In this document: positions 3,323-55,424 of the stretch, piece by piece
Numbering within the stretch: the stretch's first letter is position 1
Layout: every line of letters starts with the position of its first letter
Assembly: GCF_044647545.1 (NCBI RefSeq)
Contig: NZ_CP172818.1
DNA from: Escherichia coli
Lineage (GTDB): Bacteria > Pseudomonadota > Gammaproteobacteria > Enterobacterales > Enterobacteriaceae
Reading direction: 5' to 3' (one strand)
Length of the DNA: 64,000 nucleotides
Position numbers and translations under genes: made by a program
The notes under the pieces: model-generated
Told to the model about the DNA's origin: nothing
Seen by the model: only the letters and a program-made list of their open reading frames with translations
Database searches by the model: none

Positions 3323-4234
3323 ATGTATTACGGGTTTGATATTGGTGGAACAAAAATTGCGCTAGGCGTGTTTGATAGCGGTCGGCAGTTGCAGTGGGAA
3401 AAGCGGGTGCCGACACCGCGTGACAGCTATGACGCATTTTTAGATGCAGTGTGTGAGCTGGTAGCTGAAGCTGACCAACGTTTTGGCTGTAAAGGCTCTG
3501 TCGGCATCGGTATTCCGGGAATGCCGGAAACAGAAGATGGTACGCTGTATGCCGCCAATGTCCCCGCTGCCAGCGGTAAACCGCTGCGTGCCGACCTGAG
3601 CGCACGTCTTGATCGCGATGTACGCCTTGATAACGATGCCAACTGTTTTGCCCTTTCAGAAGCCTGGGATGATGAATTTACTCAATATCCACTGGTGATG
3701 GGGTTGATTCTCGGCACCGGCGTTGGCGGTGGGCTGATTTTCAACGGCAAACCGATTACCGGTAAAAGCTACATTACCGGCGAGTTTGGCCATATGCGTC
3801 TGCCGGTTGATGCGTTAACCATGATGGGGTTGGATTTCCCGTTACGCCGCTGCGGCTGTGGTCAGCATGGCTGCATTGAAAATTATCTGTCTGGTCGCGG
3901 TTTTGCGTGGCTGTATCAACACTATTATCATCAACCGTTGCAGGCTCCTGAGATCATTGCGCTTTATGATCAAGGCGATGAGCAGGCAAGGGCGCACGTT
4001 GAGCGTTATCTGGATTTATTAGCGGTTTGTCTGGGAAATATCCTGACCATTGTTGACCCTGACCTGGTCGTCATTGGTGGTGGCTTATCGAATTTCCCGG
4101 CAATCACAACGCAACTGGCGGACAGGCTGCCTCGTCATCTCTTACCTGTAGCTCGTGTTCCGCGCATTGAACGCGCGCGCCACGGTGATGCGGGGGGAAT
4201 GCGTGGTGCGGCCTTCCTACATCTAACCGATTAA
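3323..4234 (+). CDS. nagK: N-acetyl-D-glucosamine kinase (ROK family)
   Basis: ATG at 3323 ([15 protein letters not shown]) gives 303 aa; ROK-type glycine-rich ATP motif and Cys-rich zinc motif CGCGQHGC. Confidence 0.85.
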
Positions 4235-5208: not shown

Positions 5209-5997
5209 TTACCGTTTACTCGTCAATAACAACGCGGCAATAAACGTACAGACACCAATCAGCCCTGCCCAGAGCGGCGATATTCTGGTAATTGCAAAGC
5301 TATTATCGATATACAGGCATAAAGCCTGATAGCCCATATTGGCAACAGTCATCGCCACTGCAAACTTTAATGCATAATTAAGGCGCGTCGTGTAGTTAAA
5401 AAATGCCGTAAAGACGATGAATGCAACCGCCCAGGCAAAAAGGCCTAATGTCGTGGTACTGCCGGGAGGATCATTCTCCTGCTGTTGTCCGGGATGCGGA
5501 TAATATGTCAGTGGCGGCGTCGGTTGTTTTAATATCTGTGCTTGTAAAACAGCCAATGCATTATTGATTCCCTGATACCAGAGATCTACATGTAAATAAG
5601 CCAGAGTGTGATTTTCTACCAGAAGGCCGAGATGTTTATCGTCCATACTGCTTTCGACCTGGCCGTTGGTTATCATAATTAACCGTGGCTCGCGGGTAGT
5701 AAAGAGTAACAGAACACTTCCTTTTACATTACTCATTGAAGATGCCGCATGCGCCAGCATCGCTTTGCCATTTTGCCTGAGACTGGCTTCATTATTAATG
5801 TCGGGTAAAACCACAATAAACGGTACAACTCCGGTTTGTTGGCGAAAAAGTTCGGCTTTATGCGCGATCTCTTCAGCATCTGGTACAGTACCGGTAACAT
5901 CCGTAAAAAGTGTCTTCATTATTGGAATTAAGGGCTTACTGATTGCCGTCAGAGGCAGGAACATCAGTAAACTGAGCAGTATCATGATTTTTTTCAT
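5209..5997 (-). CDS. ycfZ: inner membrane protein YcfZ
   Basis: 262-aa ORF with N-terminal signal/TM and C-terminal TM segments. Confidence 0.75.
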
Positions 5998-6455
5998 GGG
6001 CGGGACTTCCGTTTCCTGCGTGTCTTTTTAGAGGAGGGCATACTGATTAATAAACCGACGGCGATAAAAATAACGCCCATAATGCCGATAAACCCCCATT
6101 TAAAAAAATTAACCCACGGGTTATTTATCTCAGCCTTTTCAGGATGTCCTGGAGAATAATAAACATTAACTTTATCGCCTTCGCTGTCTTCATAAAAATC
6201 GCTGCCAATACTCGAATTGAAAATTAGCGTGTAATCTGGCGTCGGACGAAAGGCAACGACGGGATACCACGAACCATTTTTACCCGTGCGATGAGAATGA
6301 CTGGAGTGCCAGACGGTATCAACAATGACGCCTTCAGTATGAATCGCGTCTTTGCTATAGGTGAACTGGTTATAAAAGATAACAACAGAAATGAGGATCA
6401 GTACCAGACCGATACCGAAGAATATACGAAAGAAAACTTTACTGTCCTGACTCAT
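5994..6455 (-). CDS. ymfA: inner membrane protein YmfA
   Basis: ORF 5994..6497; start at MSQDSK (6455) preferred because AGGA lies about 8 nt upstream; 153 aa; overlaps ycfZ start. Confidence 0.7.
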
Positions 6456-24408: not shown

Positions 24409-25536
24409 TCACAACGCTACTTTGCTCCATCCTTTACCTCGATCATCATGATAACGATCGGTTTGTTGTTGTGTTTTATGACCAAGTAGTTTTTGTGTGT
24501 CTAACCCCTGTTCTTTATACAGACGTTCAGATAAAGACCTTTGCTCATGGAATGTCGCAGGTGAACCCTCTCCCCAGTCAATTCTTGCTAAATCTCTCGC
24601 TTTACTAAAATTCATCGTCAATGTATTGGCTTTAACCTGCGCTCCGCGCTCTGCTTGTGAAGTTGAACGAAAAAAATGCACTAAGTATGCACTGACTGCA
24701 TAGTCACGGCAGCGGGCTACTACATCGCGTAAACTCCAGTTAATCGCATTGAGGCGAAGAGAAAGAGGAATTGCGATTTTGCTCCCGGTCTTTTCCTGAA
24801 TGACATGAAGATGATCATCCCAAATATCGCTAAATTTCATACGCGAAATATCACCTAACCGCTGACCAGTAACCAGCGCTAACAGCATGGCATTTCCCAT
24901 GTAACGATGAGTAGCGTCTGCGATATCGAAGATTTTTTTCCATTCTTCAAGGCTCAGCCGTTGTCGGGTAATTTTTCTTCTTGGTTGTTTAGTGGCTAAT
25001 GCTGGGTTATAGCCAGGAGGTACTTCTCCGTAGTGCTGCGCCTCTTTGAAAACATCAATCAGGACGGAGCGAACTACTTGTGCCATTCTTGGCCGCCCAG
25101 CGGCGATATACTCATCAAGCAATTGTGCTATATCTCTGACATCAACGGCTGAGATCAACTTCATTCCTGCTCGTTCTCTGAGCAAGGATACTGGTTTAGC
25201 TTTTTGTTTATAGGTGTTGAGTCTTATATCACCACTTTTAAGCCTGTCATCCTGGATCGCTTGATAGCGATCTAACCAGGTTGACGTTGTGATAGCCTTT
25301 CCTTTGCTGGTTGCGATCCTGTCACTGATAGCCAGAATCTGCCGGGTTCTTTGTTCAGCCAGGCGAGTGTTGGCCTCAGTGGCAATAGCGATAGCTTCAG
25401 CTTCGTTTGTTCCCAAAGCATGGAATTTTCCTGTCACTGGATGCTTATACCGCCAATAGACTTTATTTACCTTCCTACTATAAAGCGGATATAAGTTAGG
25501 GACTGAAACATTATTCTTACGCGGTCTGGCTGCCAT
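24409..25536 (-). CDS. intE: tyrosine integrase
   Basis: 375-aa ORF; C-terminal catalytic region with R..HxxR..Y (LLGHKTQQQTDRYHDD). Confidence 0.9.
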   Translation of the reverse strand: MAARPRKNNVSVPNLYPLYSRKVNKVYWRYKHPVTGKFHALGTNEAEAIAIATEANTRLAEQRTRQILAISDRIATSKGKAITTSTWLDRYQAIQDDRLKSGDIRLNTYKQKAKPVSLLRERAGMKLISAVDVRDIAQLLDEYIAAGRPRMAQVVRSVLIDVFKEAQHYGEVPPGYNPALATKQPRRKITRQRLSLEEWKKIFDIADATHRYMGNAMLLALVTGQRLGDISRMKFSDIWDDHLHVIQEKTGSKIAIPLSLRLNAINWSLRDVVARCRDYAVSAYLVHFFRSTSQAERGAQVKANTLTMNFSKARDLARIDWGEGSPATFHEQRSLSERLYKEQGLDTQKLLGHKTQQQTDRYHDDRGKGWSKVAL

Positions 25537-25762
25537 TACTCAAAATCCGTTGCAAAAGTAATGAGTCATTTTTCTTGATTACAGGTGTTACCAACTCCCC
25601 AACTAACTCGGCGTCCTCACGCACTCGCCATAACCGGCCTTGTTTCATGGCCGGTGGACAAAATAAATTCTGCTTAGCATAACGACGCAATGTGGACACA
25701 CTTGGAGGATTACTTCTGTATTTTTCAGCAGCCCATTCTTCAAGAGTTAACATTTGAAGCAT
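25517..25762 (-). CDS. xisE: excisionase (AlpA/Xis-like HTH)
   Basis: 81-aa ORF overlapping the int start; typical int-xis arrangement. Confidence 0.8.
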   Translation of the reverse strand: MLQMLTLEEWAAEKYRSNPPSVSTLRRYAKQNLFCPPAMKQGRLWRVREDAELVGELVTPVIKKNDSLLLQRILSNGSQTA

Positions 25763-26228
25763 ATGCGATCACCTTATTACTACACTAACTGCTTAGTCTC
25801 ATCATATCGACCCTGCAAGGCCGATTAGTTTCTCCACAAAACAGAGAAGAACACCTGCGGCGGCAGCCGCCCGGATGGATTGGGTTATGAGCCCGTCGTC
25901 CGGTGATGCTCTTCTCTGTTTTGTAAAAAGGACGGTACCAGCCTGAAGCAAGGGTACAAACTGGTACCGCCAGGACTACACACAGCATAAAGTTGTGGTG
26001 CCGGGTGCCTCCCGGTGCCTGGCGAAGGTTGCACACCAGACGGGTGGGTATCCACAGAAGGTCGACTGTCAGCCTCAACCTTAACCCGCGTGCGCTGAGC
26101 CGCATTCACCACAACGCTAAGGATTCTCTTTGGTTGAAAATACTTAGCTGTTATGTGCCTGTCTTTTCACCACTTCAGGCTCGGTGGTATGCTGGAGTTC
26201 TCACACAGCCAGCAAGCAAGGAAACTTA

Positions 26229-26570
26229 ATGAACCAGTTTTATGTTCACGTTCGTCTATTTGAAGACACAGCCGAACAGACCAAAAAATTTGAAGAATTA
26301 ATGCTTAACTTTCTGTACCAGAAAACAGTTAAAGAGTCTGACGATAGCTGCTGCAGACTGATTCCAGAGGGATATATCCTCAAAAGTACAATGAACTGCC
26401 AACAAATCCTTGATCAAACATTTTCAATTGCTAACAGTGCCGGTGTTGACGCAAATATATTTGTCTGTAAATTTGAACAAAGCGCATGCTTACTTCCGTC
26501 TGCTTCCTTAGTTGGTAACGATTTCGTTCATTACGATCTTACGCCTAAGCCCATCAAGCTCGATTCTTAA
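26229..26570 (+). CDS. ymfI: prophage protein of unknown function
   Basis: Start MNQFYVHVRLF gives 113 aa; no recognisable motif. Confidence 0.55.
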   Translation: MNQFYVHVRLFEDTAEQTKKFEELMLNFLYQKTVKESDDSCCRLIPEGYILKSTMNCQQILDQTFSIANSAGVDANIFVCKFEQSACLLPSASLVGNDFVHYDLTPKPIKLDS

Positions 26571-26816
26571 AGCCTTAACCATTGTGTCGTGATAAACACG
26601 GCTCACCTTCTCTCCATTGCATGGCAGAGGGGTGAGTGTGTTAGCCATGAAATTCATGAACTCGGTTCGACCAGGGGCTTGCGCCCCGCAAGTCTTTAAT
26701 GCCTGTTTTGCTAACAAAATGCGGGCCTCAGTGCCTGCATTTGGCTCTATCTGCTGCAAACGTTTAGCGTCTTCCAGCAACAATGCGATCACATGCTTCA
26801 AATTCTGCTCATTCAT
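26508..26816 (-). CDS. ymfJ: prophage protein of unknown function
   Basis: 102-aa ORF downstream of a strong promoter-like element. Confidence 0.6.
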   Translation of the reverse strand: MNEQNLKHVIALLLEDAKRLQQIEPNAGTEARILLAKQALKTCGAQAPGRTEFMNFMANTLTPLPCNGEKVSRVYHDTMVKALRIELDGLRRKIVMNEIVTN

Positions 26817-26922
26817 CTATTCTCTCCACTGAAATCATCCGCTAACGAATCATCCCGGTCTTCGTACGTACCGGGCGGGCTACTTCGTGGGCGTCCTGCC
26901 TGTTTGTTGTTTCTCTTGGGTA

Positions 26923-26951
26923 CATTATGTATCTCAAAGGTACATTGTCAA
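26923..26951 (-). promoter_or_regulatory. sigma70-like promoter for ymfJ with overlapping GTACC operator half-sites
   Basis: Minus strand TTGACA, 17-nt spacer, ATAATG; tGTACC motifs overlap both hexamers. Confidence 0.5.
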
Positions 26952-26952
26952 G

Positions 26953-26978
26953 TATAAAAAAACCTGCCGAAGCAGGTT
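26953..26978 (-). terminator. rho-independent terminator of cohE
   Basis: Minus strand AACCTGC-ttcg-GCAGGTT followed by TTTTTTT, 13 nt after the cohE stop. Confidence 0.75.
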
Positions 26979-26990
26979 CATAAACATTGA

Positions 26991-27665
26991 TTAGGCTTTG
27001 ATTTTGTATCTTCTTGGTTTTCCTGAGAAAATCACAGTACCAATTATAGAGCAATTACCGTTGATCTTAATGTAAGGCTCAGGCCAGTTTGGGTTTAACG
27101 CTTTGAGATAACGCTGTGTCCCATCTTCTATCAACCTTTTGAAGGTGGTTTCACCTGTATCGTGCATCAATGCAATAACGTCGTCACCGTGGCAGGCAGG
27201 TACTTCAGGATCGACAAAAATCATGTCTCCCGGGCGGTACTCATCAATCATTGAATCACCTATTACCCGCAAGATATAAGTCATTTCCCCACAGGGTACA
27301 GGGCAGGGATACGTTTCTGCTGTGCTCAAATCAACCTCAGAATATCCAACTTCTTTCCATGCTCCGGCCTGTACCCATGATATGACAGGGACTAATGTGA
27401 TTTGTTTATTAGTGATTGAAACATCAGGTTTTTTTGTGATGTTCGTTGTCTGGTGTTCTTGATCGAGCCATCCTACAGGCAGGTCGAAACATTTTTCGAT
27501 GTGTCGTGCCATGCTGTCACCGATATTTTTAGTAGCACCATCTCCCATAAACCTGCTGGTCTGGGTTGGCTCGCGATCAATCATAGTGGCAAAGGAAGAA
27601 TTCCCGCCAACACCATCTCTCAGTTTTCTGGCGTTAGACCGCCGGATGTCATGGATTGTTTTCAT
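26991..27665 (-). CDS. cohE: CI-like prophage repressor (HTH plus LexA-type S24 peptidase domain)
   Basis: 224-aa ORF; C-terminal VIGDSMIDEYRPGDMIFVDPE self-cleavage domain; divergent from cro-like gene. Confidence 0.85.
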   Translation of the reverse strand: MKTIHDIRRSNARKLRDGVGGNSSFATMIDREPTQTSRFMGDGATKNIGDSMARHIEKCFDLPVGWLDQEHQTTNITKKPDVSITNKQITLVPVISWVQAGAWKEVGYSEVDLSTAETYPCPVPCGEMTYILRVIGDSMIDEYRPGDMIFVDPEVPACHGDDVIALMHDTGETTFKRLIEDGTQRYLKALNPNWPEPYIKINGNCSIIGTVIFSGKPRRYKIKA

Positions 27666-27987: not shown

Positions 27988-28554
27988 ATGAGGCTAATCG
28001 TGGGTAAGCATCACTGGAAAATAGAAAAACAGCCTGAGTGGTACGTGAAAGCTGTCAGAAAAACTATCGCGGCGTTGCCGAGTGGTTACGCTGAAGCGGC
28101 TGACTGGCTCGATGTAACAGAAAACGCTTTATTCAACCGCCTTCGTGCAGATGGCGATCAGATTTTCCCGCTGGGATGGGCAATGGTTTTACAGCGTGCT
28201 GGTGGCACTCACTTCATTGCTGATGCTGTGGCGCAGTCTGCAAATGGCGTCTTTGTGTCTCTTCCTGACGTCGAGGATGTGGACAACGCCGATATTAACC
28301 AGCGTCTGCTGGAAGTCATTGAACAGATCGGCAGTTATTCAAAACAGATTCGTTCAGCAATCGAAGACGGTGTAGTGGAACCGCATGAGAAGACAGCAAT
28401 TAACGACGAGCTGTATCTCTCAATTTCGAAGCTGCAGGAGCATGCAGCACTTGTCTACAAAATTTTTTGCATTTCAGAAAGTAACGCCCGCGAGTGTGCA
28501 GCTCCGGGCGTCGTGGCGTCGATTGCTTCTGGTTGTGGAGAAACTAACGCATGA
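27988..28554 (+). CDS. ymfL: prophage regulatory protein (CII-like family)
   Basis: 188-aa ORF immediately downstream of croE, early-region position. Confidence 0.6.
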
Positions 28555-55092: not shown

Positions 55093-55424
55093 AATCATTC
55101 GCCTCTTTAAATATATAAATTGTAATGAAACTCCTGTTTTACAACTATTAAAGAATTTTACTTCATCTAATTCATAGTTAGCCGGGCGGGATGCGTCAAT
55201 GTCTTTATTTCTATTAATATGATAAATATCAAACAATGTTTAATGTCATTATGGCTGATGCTTCTATTCTATTTTTTAGCCGGGTGATATTTTTCATTTC
55301 TGCTGGATGAGCGTCGTCGCCAGAAGGCGCGTGAGCACAGGATAAGAGAACGAAAAATCAGCAGTCTATGCAGCGACAAATATTGATAGCCTGAATCAGT
55401 ATTGATCTGCTGGTAAGAACAGAC

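Follow-up and report, generated by a model that had tools for sequence, protein, structure and literature searches.

A probable phage early-left leader in an e14-like prophage of Escherichia coli joins an STnc100-like RNA domain to a three-way junction with a tRNA-like apex

The element described here is a stretch of DNA (25785–26228) in a window of 64,000 nucleotides (nt) from Escherichia coli contig NZ_CP172818.1 (RefSeq assembly GCF_044647545.1); ‘the window’ denotes this whole sequence, and positions refer to it unless another genome is named. The window contains an e14-like prophage, in which the stretch separates the genes xisE and intE from ymfI, ymfJ, and cohE, a gene for a cI-like repressor (Table 1). 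The feature is real, conserved, non-coding, and regulatory: on the minus strand, a relative of the small RNA STnc100 that scores below the Rfam threshold is joined, within a phage leader, to a hitherto undescribed three-way junction with a tRNA-like apex.

Attention was first drawn to this stretch by a reading of the letters alone (the original prediction), which pointed to a perfect 15-bp inverted repeat. Its arms (25836–25850, acaaaacagagaaga, and 25910–25924, tcttctctgttttgt) are exact reverse complements separated by 59 bp; in a repeat search they lengthen to 25 nt at 84% (25836–25860 and 25900–25924), and perfect 15-bp inverted repeats with spacers of at most 100 bp give 11 overlapping k-mer hits window-wide, far above the mean of 0.05 in block-shuffled copies. 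The compositional contrast that had been described is also present (GC content 0.52–0.57 over 25800–26199, 0.39–0.46 in the flanks). The statement that no credible open reading frame (ORF) occurs holds insofar as only overlapping frames rich in arginine and cysteine are found (106 and 75 amino acids [aa] on the minus strand, 78 aa on the plus strand), with the qualification that the 106-aa frame is annotated in K-12 as the coding sequence (CDS) ymfH, a gene call that the tests reported below do not support. What had been overlooked is that the minus strand is the relevant one, that the repeat is the basal helix of a junction, and that an STnc100-like domain and a terminator stand just upstream of it.

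Table 1. Coordinates of the RNA elements, reading frame, promoter, and genes discussed in the text
Feature	Position	Strand	Remark
cohE (cI-like)	26991-27665	minus	e14-like prophage
pL-like promoter TTGACA-16-CATAAT, 11/12	26951..26924	minus	promoter scan; outside the stretch
ymfJ	26508-26816	minus	e14-like prophage
ymfI	26229-26570	plus	e14-like prophage
Conserved hairpin UACCAC-CGAGCCUGAA-GUGGUG, then AAAAGACAGGCAC	26155..26189	minus	recurs in many other leaders
STnc100/PasD-family core, 124 nt, pseudoknotted	25992..26115	minus	Rfam match, covariation
Closing helix P1, GUUGUGGUG/CACCACAAC	core ends	minus	
106-aa ORF, K-12 ‘ymfH’ CDS (b1142)	26105..25785	minus	judged spurious
Hairpin hp1	26103-26088	minus	
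Pseudoknot, AAGGUUG with CAACCUU (P4 loop)	26082-26076 with 26031-26025	minus	
Helix P4	26041-26017	minus	
Invariant 22-mer	26017-25996	minus	invariant among contigs retrieved with it
Terminal hairpin CCGGGAGGCACCCGG, 5 bp	26015-26001	minus	
Single-stranded linker UUUAUGCUGUGUGUAGUCCU	25972..25991	minus	
Intrinsic terminator T1, GGCGGUACCAG...CUGGUACCGUC, then CUUUUU	25925..25971	minus	fold: 15-bp stem
Three-way junction RNA	25829..25929	minus	folds, covariation
Junction basal helix, holding both 15-bp arms	25924-25905 with 25855-25836	minus	
Arm A	25903-25871	minus	
Arm A apex CGGGCUCAUAACCC	25895-25882	minus	alignment with metZ of MG1655
Arm B	25870-25857	minus	
Small hairpin UCGGCCUUGCAGGGUCGA	25807..25824	minus	in intact relatives, lies ahead of the first early-left gene's ribosome-binding site
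xisE	25517-25762	minus	e14-like prophage
intE	24409-25536	minus	e14-like prophage

Of 5426 complete E. coli genomes, 2784 contain some part of the stretch, and 1497 of these carry at least 80% of it; the K-12 copy, annotated as the CDS ymfH, is 92.5% identical. Among phages, SfV matches positions 25798–26193 with 99% identity, related copies are found in SfII, SfIV, mEp460_4F5, and ST64B (77%), and the sub-segment 25798–25972 occurs alone, behind other upstream sequence, in Stx2a and Stx2c phages and mEp460. Comparison with intact relatives, one of the checks proposed with the original prediction, proved informative: in the intact phages examined (SfV, Stx2a_WGPS2, ST64B, and mEp460), the homologous sequence sits on the operon strand between cI/pL and the first early-left gene, and none of these leaders carries an annotated N-like gene. 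The order in ST64B is cI stop, terminator, pL with operator-like repeats, a leader of ~350 nt, core, T1, junction, Shine-Dalgarno sequence, and sb37. The homology with SfV stops near 25798, beyond which SfV enters orf32 and e14 enters xisE. From the position of the homologous sequence in intact relatives and from this end of homology, it follows that the stretch is the leader of the early-left operon, which was joined to xisE when a deletion rendered e14 defective. The proposal that the stretch might be the remnant of a lost gene is therefore half correct: early-left genes have been lost from e14, but the stretch itself is their intact leader.

The probable source of leader transcription is a pL-like promoter that lies directly past the cohE (cI) terminator (26979..26960). 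SfV has the same promoter sequence after its cI terminator, and ST64B has its pL at the equivalent place. A promoter scan predicted no sigma-70-like site on the minus strand from 26228 to 25763, and the suggestion that the stretch holds a promoter for xis and int is not supported by this result. In K-12, azidothymidine (AZT) has been reported to induce ymfH, xisE, and intE together in a LexA-dependent manner (DNA damage), and Reg-seq handles intE-xisE-ymfH as a single operon. A Salmonella prophage review is silent on this leader. Two observations concern its upstream part. The first ~30 nt after the pL-like promoter (ACAGGCAGGACGCCCACGAAGUAGCCGCC, ~26880–26905 on the minus strand) are conserved among e14, SfV (~3950–3985), and ST64B (~3640–3670) and may be another leader module. 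The AT-rich ymfI is antisense within the leader; SfV has a different antisense ORF at the equivalent spot (~3410–3590), and ymfI looks like a moron insertion into a long untranslated leader.

The inverted repeat lies in the three-way junction that follows the intrinsic terminator T1. A search of IMG/VR with the junction loop yielded at least 120 contigs and 60 distinct variants with one common fold, consisting of a basal helix of 20–25 bp from the T1 U-tract to GUGGAGAAA, an arm A with CCGGACGACGGGCUCAUAACCCAAUCCAUCCGG, and a short, variable arm B; the basal helix is prolonged by pairing of the U-tract with GGAGAAA. In an alignment of 24 diverse variants, pairing holds in 95.1% of cells and double changes are seen at 9 pairs (for instance GC/CG at 15:9, a single position), slid controls reach 37–49%, and none of 500 shuffles attains the observed paired percentage or covariation score. 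These values, and those given below for the core, are to be read with the mode of sampling in mind: relatives were retrieved by exact conserved motifs, which makes motif invariance partly a matter of construction, and the retrieved sequences are related, so that the shuffle tests treat them as more independent than they are. A covariance model built from the junction variants (R1) finds one copy in the window (25827–25931), scoring 114.8 bits on the minus strand against 43.8 bits on the plus strand, and the predicted fold of the stretch is likewise more stable on the minus strand (−159 kcal/mol, z −6.1) than on the plus strand (−140.9 kcal/mol, z −4.7). Within the junction, G-U cells outnumber A-C cells by 43 to 9, and therefore the minus strand is the folded strand. 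The regulatory RNA structure that the original prediction had entertained for this non-coding stretch is thus borne out by covarying minus-strand folds.

The same figures bear on the possibility that the repeat acts as DNA, as a protein-binding site, cruciform, or recombination site such as an operator of xis and int. A long, near-perfect palindrome beside recombination genes has the classical look of such an element, and this was among the ideas of the original prediction. In intact relatives, however, the repeat lies 3–4 kb from int and xis, beside the first early-left gene; its arms tolerate G-U over A-C, which is sensible only for a minus-strand RNA; the 59-nt spacer consists of two conserved, covarying hairpins; and no promoter-like site was predicted. 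We regard a DNA-level role as very improbable.

Downstream of the junction, 50 distinct contexts usually show a hairpin (GGCGG..CCGCC or CGACC..GGUCG), then a Shine-Dalgarno sequence and a start codon ~45 nt past the junction. The first early-left gene in these contexts belongs mostly to phrog_204 (sb37/orf32), a family without an assigned function.

The apex of arm A is identical at 14 of 14 positions to the anticodon stem-loop of the E. coli initiator tRNAfMet, with a GGG/CCC stem and a CUCAUAA loop. It is kept in SfV and in ST64B, where the loop reads CUCAUUA. Partial matches to the R1 model led to a sister form in 98 contigs, found in the tRNA arrays of phage late regions and of the layout GGCCUG-A-[arm A]-[covarying arm B]-CAGGCC-(G/A)CCA and 70–71 nt long. 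Of 67 unique variants of this form, 65 have NCCA after the basal stem, and 80 of 92 copies lie at most 60 nt after a genuine tRNA (Arg-UCU, Asn, Thr), usually with a gap of 6 nt. One viral contig (L129) carries both forms, the leader form and the CCA-ended tRNA-like form, at 6076 and 14629. ARAGORN called nothing in the window from 25500 to 26500 and did not call the late-region sister form either; the Rfam tRNA model matched neither the sister form nor the leader junction, and Rfam 15 holds no family for the junction alone or for the late-region sister, to which only chance microRNA and small nucleolar RNA (snoRNA) models matched. The only tRNA feature of the leader form in the window is the copied tRNAfMet anticodon stem-loop. 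The e14 junction is the leader version of the family to which the sister form belongs, with a long helix in place of the acceptor-like stem and without CCA.

These likenesses invite an explanation in which the leader, far from being passive structure, comprises a pair of tRNA-related RNA devices. The junction apex and the CCA-ended sister would be read by machinery that acts on tRNAfMet, namely the VapC-type initiator-tRNA anticodon nucleases of Shigella and Salmonella, the 30S P site with IF3, or methionyl-tRNA synthetase (MetRS); the junction would protect or time early phage expression by acting as a decoy or sensor, with the STnc100 core as a partner module. We consider this unlikely. If it is true, these phage tRNA mimics would form a new class, carried by about half of E. 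coli genomes.

Upstream of T1 and its linker stands the core domain. The search against RNA families that had been proposed as a check gave a divided answer: STnc100 (RF02076) matches over the full model (26137..25922, minus strand; E 3e-6), but the 39.5 bits of the e14 core do not reach the gathering score of 47 bits, and the junction is left without an Rfam family. The SfV core scores 39.5 bits and that of ST64B 35.1 bits, whereas class-I (canonical) members score 52–165 bits. Two blocks of RF02076, UGGUGAAU and CACCGGGAGGCACCCGGCACCA, are both exactly present in the e14 core. The latter is the 22-mer of Table 1, which occurs in at least 120 IMG/VR contigs, with flanks that fall into 24 clusters having little else in common. 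All 24 representative cores that were aligned share one architecture, comprising P1, a 3-nt linker, hp1, a variable middle, P4, and a 5-bp terminal hairpin running into the 3′ strand of P1; the invariance of this terminal hairpin is a product of retrieval by exact motif. In these 24 sequences, 96.5% of the cells of P1 and hp1 are paired and 8 pairs show double changes; none of 500 shuffles matches these values, and slid controls give 38–52%. Between the e14 class and the canonical class, compensatory changes affect the outer pairs of P1 and four of the five hp1 pairs, with hp1 fully compensated in the e14 class (GCGGC..GCGC vs canonical CCCCC..GGGG).

A further pairing, which is not part of the Rfam consensus structure, links a segment 3–7 nt past hp1 with the P4 loop throughout the family. 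Besides the e14 pair listed in Table 1, this pseudoknot is formed by CCAGUC/GACUGG, CUGGUGU/ACACCAG, and GAACUGGCA/UGUCAGUUC, and at least 10 distinct complementary pairs occupy the same position. Its mean score is 5.58 against 3.76 with swapped partners, and none of 5000 permutations reaches the observed value.

Two other pairings were noted by eye. The sequence CACAUAACAGCUAAG (26157–26143, minus strand) can pair with CUUAGCGUUGUG (26121–26110), overlapping the P1 5′ strand GUUGUGG, and the versions in ST64B and in contig L191 are clearer; GUUGUGG may thus choose between an upstream CACAAC and the core CCACAAC, an attenuator-like alternative. A switch between the P4 3′ strand CGCCAGG and the T1 base CCUGGCG, which pair in e14, was dropped because by eye it is not conserved in ST64B or in the free-standing class.

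STnc100 has been described as a prophage small RNA and lately linked to PasD of enteropathogenic E. coli; one STnc100 copy is located 75 nt downstream of stx2, and PasD has been reported with RIL-seq partners. Canonical members are free-standing genes in which the promoter ends ~7 nt before P1, often beside tRNAs between Q and the lysis genes (e.g. HK639). The e14-class cores lie in pL leaders and below the Rfam cut-off. Adjacency of canonical STnc100 genes to phage tRNA genes was noted in HK639 (44363–44985) and in contigs L005 (2561–3563), L011 (3215–3402), and L108; in L011, 10 nt separate a core from a tRNA whose anticodon is CAU. Some contigs carry tandem STnc100 genes, with spacings of 484 and 220 nt, and L108 has three copies.

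T1 starts 20 nt past the core. Its base (GGCGG..CCGCC) and U-tract are conserved, and its interior varies freely. Term-seq data published for MG1655, from uninduced cultures, permitted a check of 3′ ends in the K-12 ortholog rather than in the strain of the window, with MG1655 positions mapped through a four-way alignment. Minus-strand 3′ ends are indeed placed in the ortholog. That at MG1655 1201195, classed as ‘internal, ymfH’, falls on the last U of the T1 tract (25925), as read from the listed sequence strings and calibrated on sgrS in the same table. A second, at 1201257 and likewise classed as ‘internal, ymfH’, corresponds to 25988, 4 nt past P1, and a third, at 1201423, classed as ‘orphan’ and recorded in two growth conditions, corresponds to 26155, after the upstream hairpin. 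T1 accordingly shows a GC-rich hairpin, a U-tract, and, via the K-12 ortholog, in vivo 3′ ends, the marks of an intrinsic terminator. Since 3′ ends fall on the last U of T1 and 4 nt past P1, T1 works in vivo in the K-12 ortholog, and a stable 3′ end marks the core boundary there. Because ymfH, xisE, and intE are co-induced, T1 must be read through on induction. An element of the linker, GCUGUGUGUAGUCUUGGCGG, recurs before T1 in leaders with unrelated cores; the linker is a candidate seed or Hfq-proximal segment.

Such discrete ends raise the question of whether the core is a free-standing gene for a trans-acting, Hfq-type small RNA, an STnc100/PasD homolog with its own promoter and with T1 as its terminator, to which the junction would be unrelated. 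The family members above the cut-off (52–165 bits) are discrete genes of this kind, with a TTGAC-17-TAnnnT-like promoter ~7 nt before P1 and a terminator of their own, some in tandem; STnc100 and PasD are reported as prophage small RNAs, the latter with RIL-seq partners; and both the 3′ ends in uninduced K-12 cultures and the conserved single-stranded linker ahead of T1 would suit such a gene. It sits less well with the failure of the scan to predict a sigma-70-like promoter upstream of the e14 core, and the class-I layout (TTGAC-17-(−10)-7 nt-P1) was not seen by eye in the e14-class cores inspected. Moreover, a core of the same class in contig L057 lies ~70 nt before the first gene with no terminator between, and T1 and the junction travel together and are linked, almost without exception, to the beginning of the first early-left gene. 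We hold an independent small RNA gene to be possible, though improbable, while noting that it is compatible with a leader function.

The K-12 copy differs from that of the window in ways that bear on the use of its data. In the K-12 core (MG1655 1201069–1201380), the terminal hairpin has lost one A and carries a G-to-A change (CCGGG-GGCACCCGA). The apex loop of arm A is mutated in the e14 copies of K-12, to GGGUUAAUAACCC, and of L061, with the basal helix kept, a pattern that fits relaxed constraint in a cryptic element. Given the changes in the core terminal hairpin and in the junction apex, the reference copy is a decayed version of the window copy, which keeps the SfV sequence.

The annotation of this region in K-12 and the designation ‘hypothetical protein’ in many RefSeq genomes require that ymfH be considered as a real protein-coding gene. 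The frame is open in most close SfV-like relatives, and over-expression of a ‘ymfH’ clone has been reported to trigger the retron-Sen2 toxin RcaT. That clone spans the core, T1, and the junction, and the active agent could be RNA rather than protein. Several results speak against a protein. The AUG of the 106-aa ORF lies inside GUGAAUGCGG of the covarying helix P1, and the frame crosses the junction and T1, so translation would traverse an intrinsic terminator with a mapped 3′ end. A conserved coding gene in homologs, which would have told against the original prediction, was looked for and not found: the frame is stopped or shifted in 10 of the unique e14-type variants (leaving ORFs of 7, 9, 17, 70, or 73 aa), it stops after 7–9 codons in ST64B-type and 25 codons in WGPS2-type cores, and in several E. 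coli variants an indel of 1 nt or 8 nt shifts it. In 32 gapless relatives, variable sites are distributed over the codon positions as 16/14/20 (p 0.57), without a third-position excess, and 36 of 50 alter the residue. The 106-aa ORF has no Pfam or PHROG family, and SfV and ST64B annotate no gene at the equivalent stretch. The ymfH CDS has no coding signature and is a K-12 mislabel of the RNA stretch; to a protein product we give hardly any credence.

With a working terminator between pL and the early-left genes, another candidate function for the core is that of a protein-independent processive antiterminator like put of HK022. The core would bind RNA polymerase, or Nus factors via a boxA-like UGCUCUUU, and allow read-through of T1 and later terminators. 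Its location fits, directly before a real terminator in a pL leader in which no N gene is annotated; mEp460, from a collection described as Nus-dependent, also lacks an annotated N-like gene in its leader; xisE and intE are induced despite T1; and GGUGAAU and the 22-mer are extremely invariant across unrelated contexts, which suggests a host partner, although for the 22-mer invariance was forced by the search. Against this, the core resembles neither putL and putR of HK022 nor the annotated putL-like RNA of HK639 in sequence or structure, transcripts of free-standing family members stop at a terminator of their own and build up as small RNAs, and the K-12 3′ end at T1 indicates termination behind the core, albeit behind a degenerate one. 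The boxA-like motifs lie in paired regions, and that of e14 agrees at only 6 of 8 positions. On balance, put-like activity appears doubtful.

A second, put-style copy of the element downstream of croE, in the right operon, was also sought, and only a 15-nt match (TTGTGGAGAAACTAA) was found, at 28533–28547. The 15-mer UUGUGGAGAAACUAA is present in RNA sense in both divergent operons (28533–28547, plus strand; 25839–25825, minus strand). The left-leader copy lies at the 3′ end of the junction; the right-operon copy lies at the ymfL/ymfM junction, and GGAG, 8 nt, and AUG there resemble a ribosome-binding site.

We favour, with a probability of about 0.6, the explanation that the stretch is the downstream part of an untranslated early-left (pL) leader RNA on the minus strand, built of recombining RNA modules, with T1 as a leaky gate and the junction in the 5′ untranslated region (UTR) of the next gene. 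Transcription would run from the promoter beside the repressor gene toward xisE-intE, through a chain made up of the hairpin, the pseudoknotted core, the linker, T1, and a three-way junction that starts at the T1 U-tract. Transcripts stopped at T1 or trimmed to the core would yield a stable STnc100-like small RNA, and those that read through the leaky T1 would have the junction in their 5′ UTR, ahead of the next gene (xisE in e14). There, the two-turn double-stranded helix, a putative RNase III-type substrate like that of the lambda N leader, and the small hairpin might set the processing, stability, or translation of the mRNA. In this manner, the region would limit and time the expression of xis-int and of the early-left genes after loss of the repressor, and in e14 the leader has outlived the deletion of the early-left genes. 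The strand, folds, conservation, position in intact phages, lack of coding signal, in vivo 3′ ends of the ortholog, and co-induction of xisE and intE form the basis on which we propose that the leader acts in attenuation or processing and, in addition, sets free a structured small RNA.

Several points weigh against this explanation. The Term-seq data come from K-12, the copy of which is 92.5% identical and degenerate in the last hairpin of the core and in the junction apex. The 3′ ends were obtained from uninduced cultures, in which pL should be repressed, making an internal promoter possible. So little variation in the core and apex, although in part a consequence of the mode of retrieval, points to a specific partner outside the explanation as it stands. 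Finally, the 106-aa frame is open in many close SfV-like relatives and in frame with orf32, an argument of little weight given that these are 95–99% identical.

SfV-, ST64B-, and Stx2-type lambdoid phages, which have no N annotated in this leader, set a real terminator between pL and all of their early-left genes, including those for recombination and excision, and the leader modules are the obvious candidates for control of the T1 gate. To the STnc100/PasD family are added a covarying pseudoknot and a subclass embedded in leaders, and a widespread three-way junction with an initiator-tRNA anticodon arm emerges, together with its CCA-ended sister, as absent from Rfam 15. For annotation, ymfH (b1142) of the reference E. 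coli and its ‘hypothetical protein’ counterparts elsewhere are better read as RNA, and published results that treat ymfH as a protein, such as its listing as a retron-toxin trigger and the ‘internal’ class given to its Term-seq 3′ end, may need to be re-read.

Some further RNA features were recorded outside the leader. The right operons of SfV (5977–6165), Stx2a_WGPS2 (5720–5908), and ST64B (5731–5919) carry isrK and C4 antisense RNA (P1-type immunity RNAs), both absent from the e14-like element in a whole-window Rfam scan at gathering scores. The sole family above gathering score in the window is the C0299 small RNA (55326–55404, plus strand, 107.7 bits), and a partial STnc150 match of 42 nt (24414–24455, minus strand, 19.9 bits, E 0.39) lies at the 3′ end of intE, near the prophage boundary.

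Among known systems, the pL leader of lambda offers one comparison; it contains nutL, an RNase III hairpin, and the N ribosome-binding site. Both are untranslated leaders with a long double-stranded hairpin just before the ribosome-binding site of the first gene, by analogy a plausible point of RNase III action. The e14 leader differs in having neither N gene nor boxB, in that its boxA-like motifs are partial and paired, and in the intrinsic terminator upstream of its helix. A lambda-type nut site is not evident, as no boxB-like hairpin was seen by eye and no N gene is annotated in SfV, ST64B, WGPS2, or mEp460. The boxA reading was set aside and kept only as a lead, because UGCUCUUU in the relatives is the paired 3′ strand of long helices and e14 has the imperfect UGUUCUUC; the nut/Gp17 system of mEp021 belongs to a different phage group. 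Like the put elements of HK022 and HK639, the RNA described here is structured and is placed ahead of terminators in the pL leader of lambdoid phages that lack N. The put RNAs consist of two stem-loops and are ~70 nt long, whereas the e14 core is a 124-nt, five-helix, pseudoknotted domain with no sequence similarity to them; blastn against the HK022 immunity region gave chance matches, and the HK022 putL/putR candidates and the putL-like RNA of HK639 resemble each other, not e14.

Mimicry of tRNA is represented by the anticodon-arm mimic of the thrS operator, the RNase P-processed C4 (P1/P7) and CI (P4) RNAs, and the tRNA-like domain of bacterial Y RNA. The junction has three arms rather than four and no D- or T-loop motifs, and its leader form has a 20–25-bp helix for an acceptor stem and no CCA; it shares with such mimics the 14/14 match of its apex to the tRNAfMet anticodon stem-loop, and its sister form has an acceptor-like stem and a 3′ NCCA, 6 nt after a real tRNA. 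STnc100/PasD, lastly, differs from the e14 core in that the latter scores below the gathering threshold, has a compensated variant of the 5′ hairpin and no evident promoter of its own, and resides in an early-left leader instead of the late region (Q-to-lysis, stx, or tRNA). Shared by the two are the blocks UGGUGAAU and CACCGGGAGGCACCCGGCACCA, P1, the 5′ hairpin, the 5-bp terminal hairpin stacked on P1, a terminator ~25–60 nt downstream, and a location in prophages.

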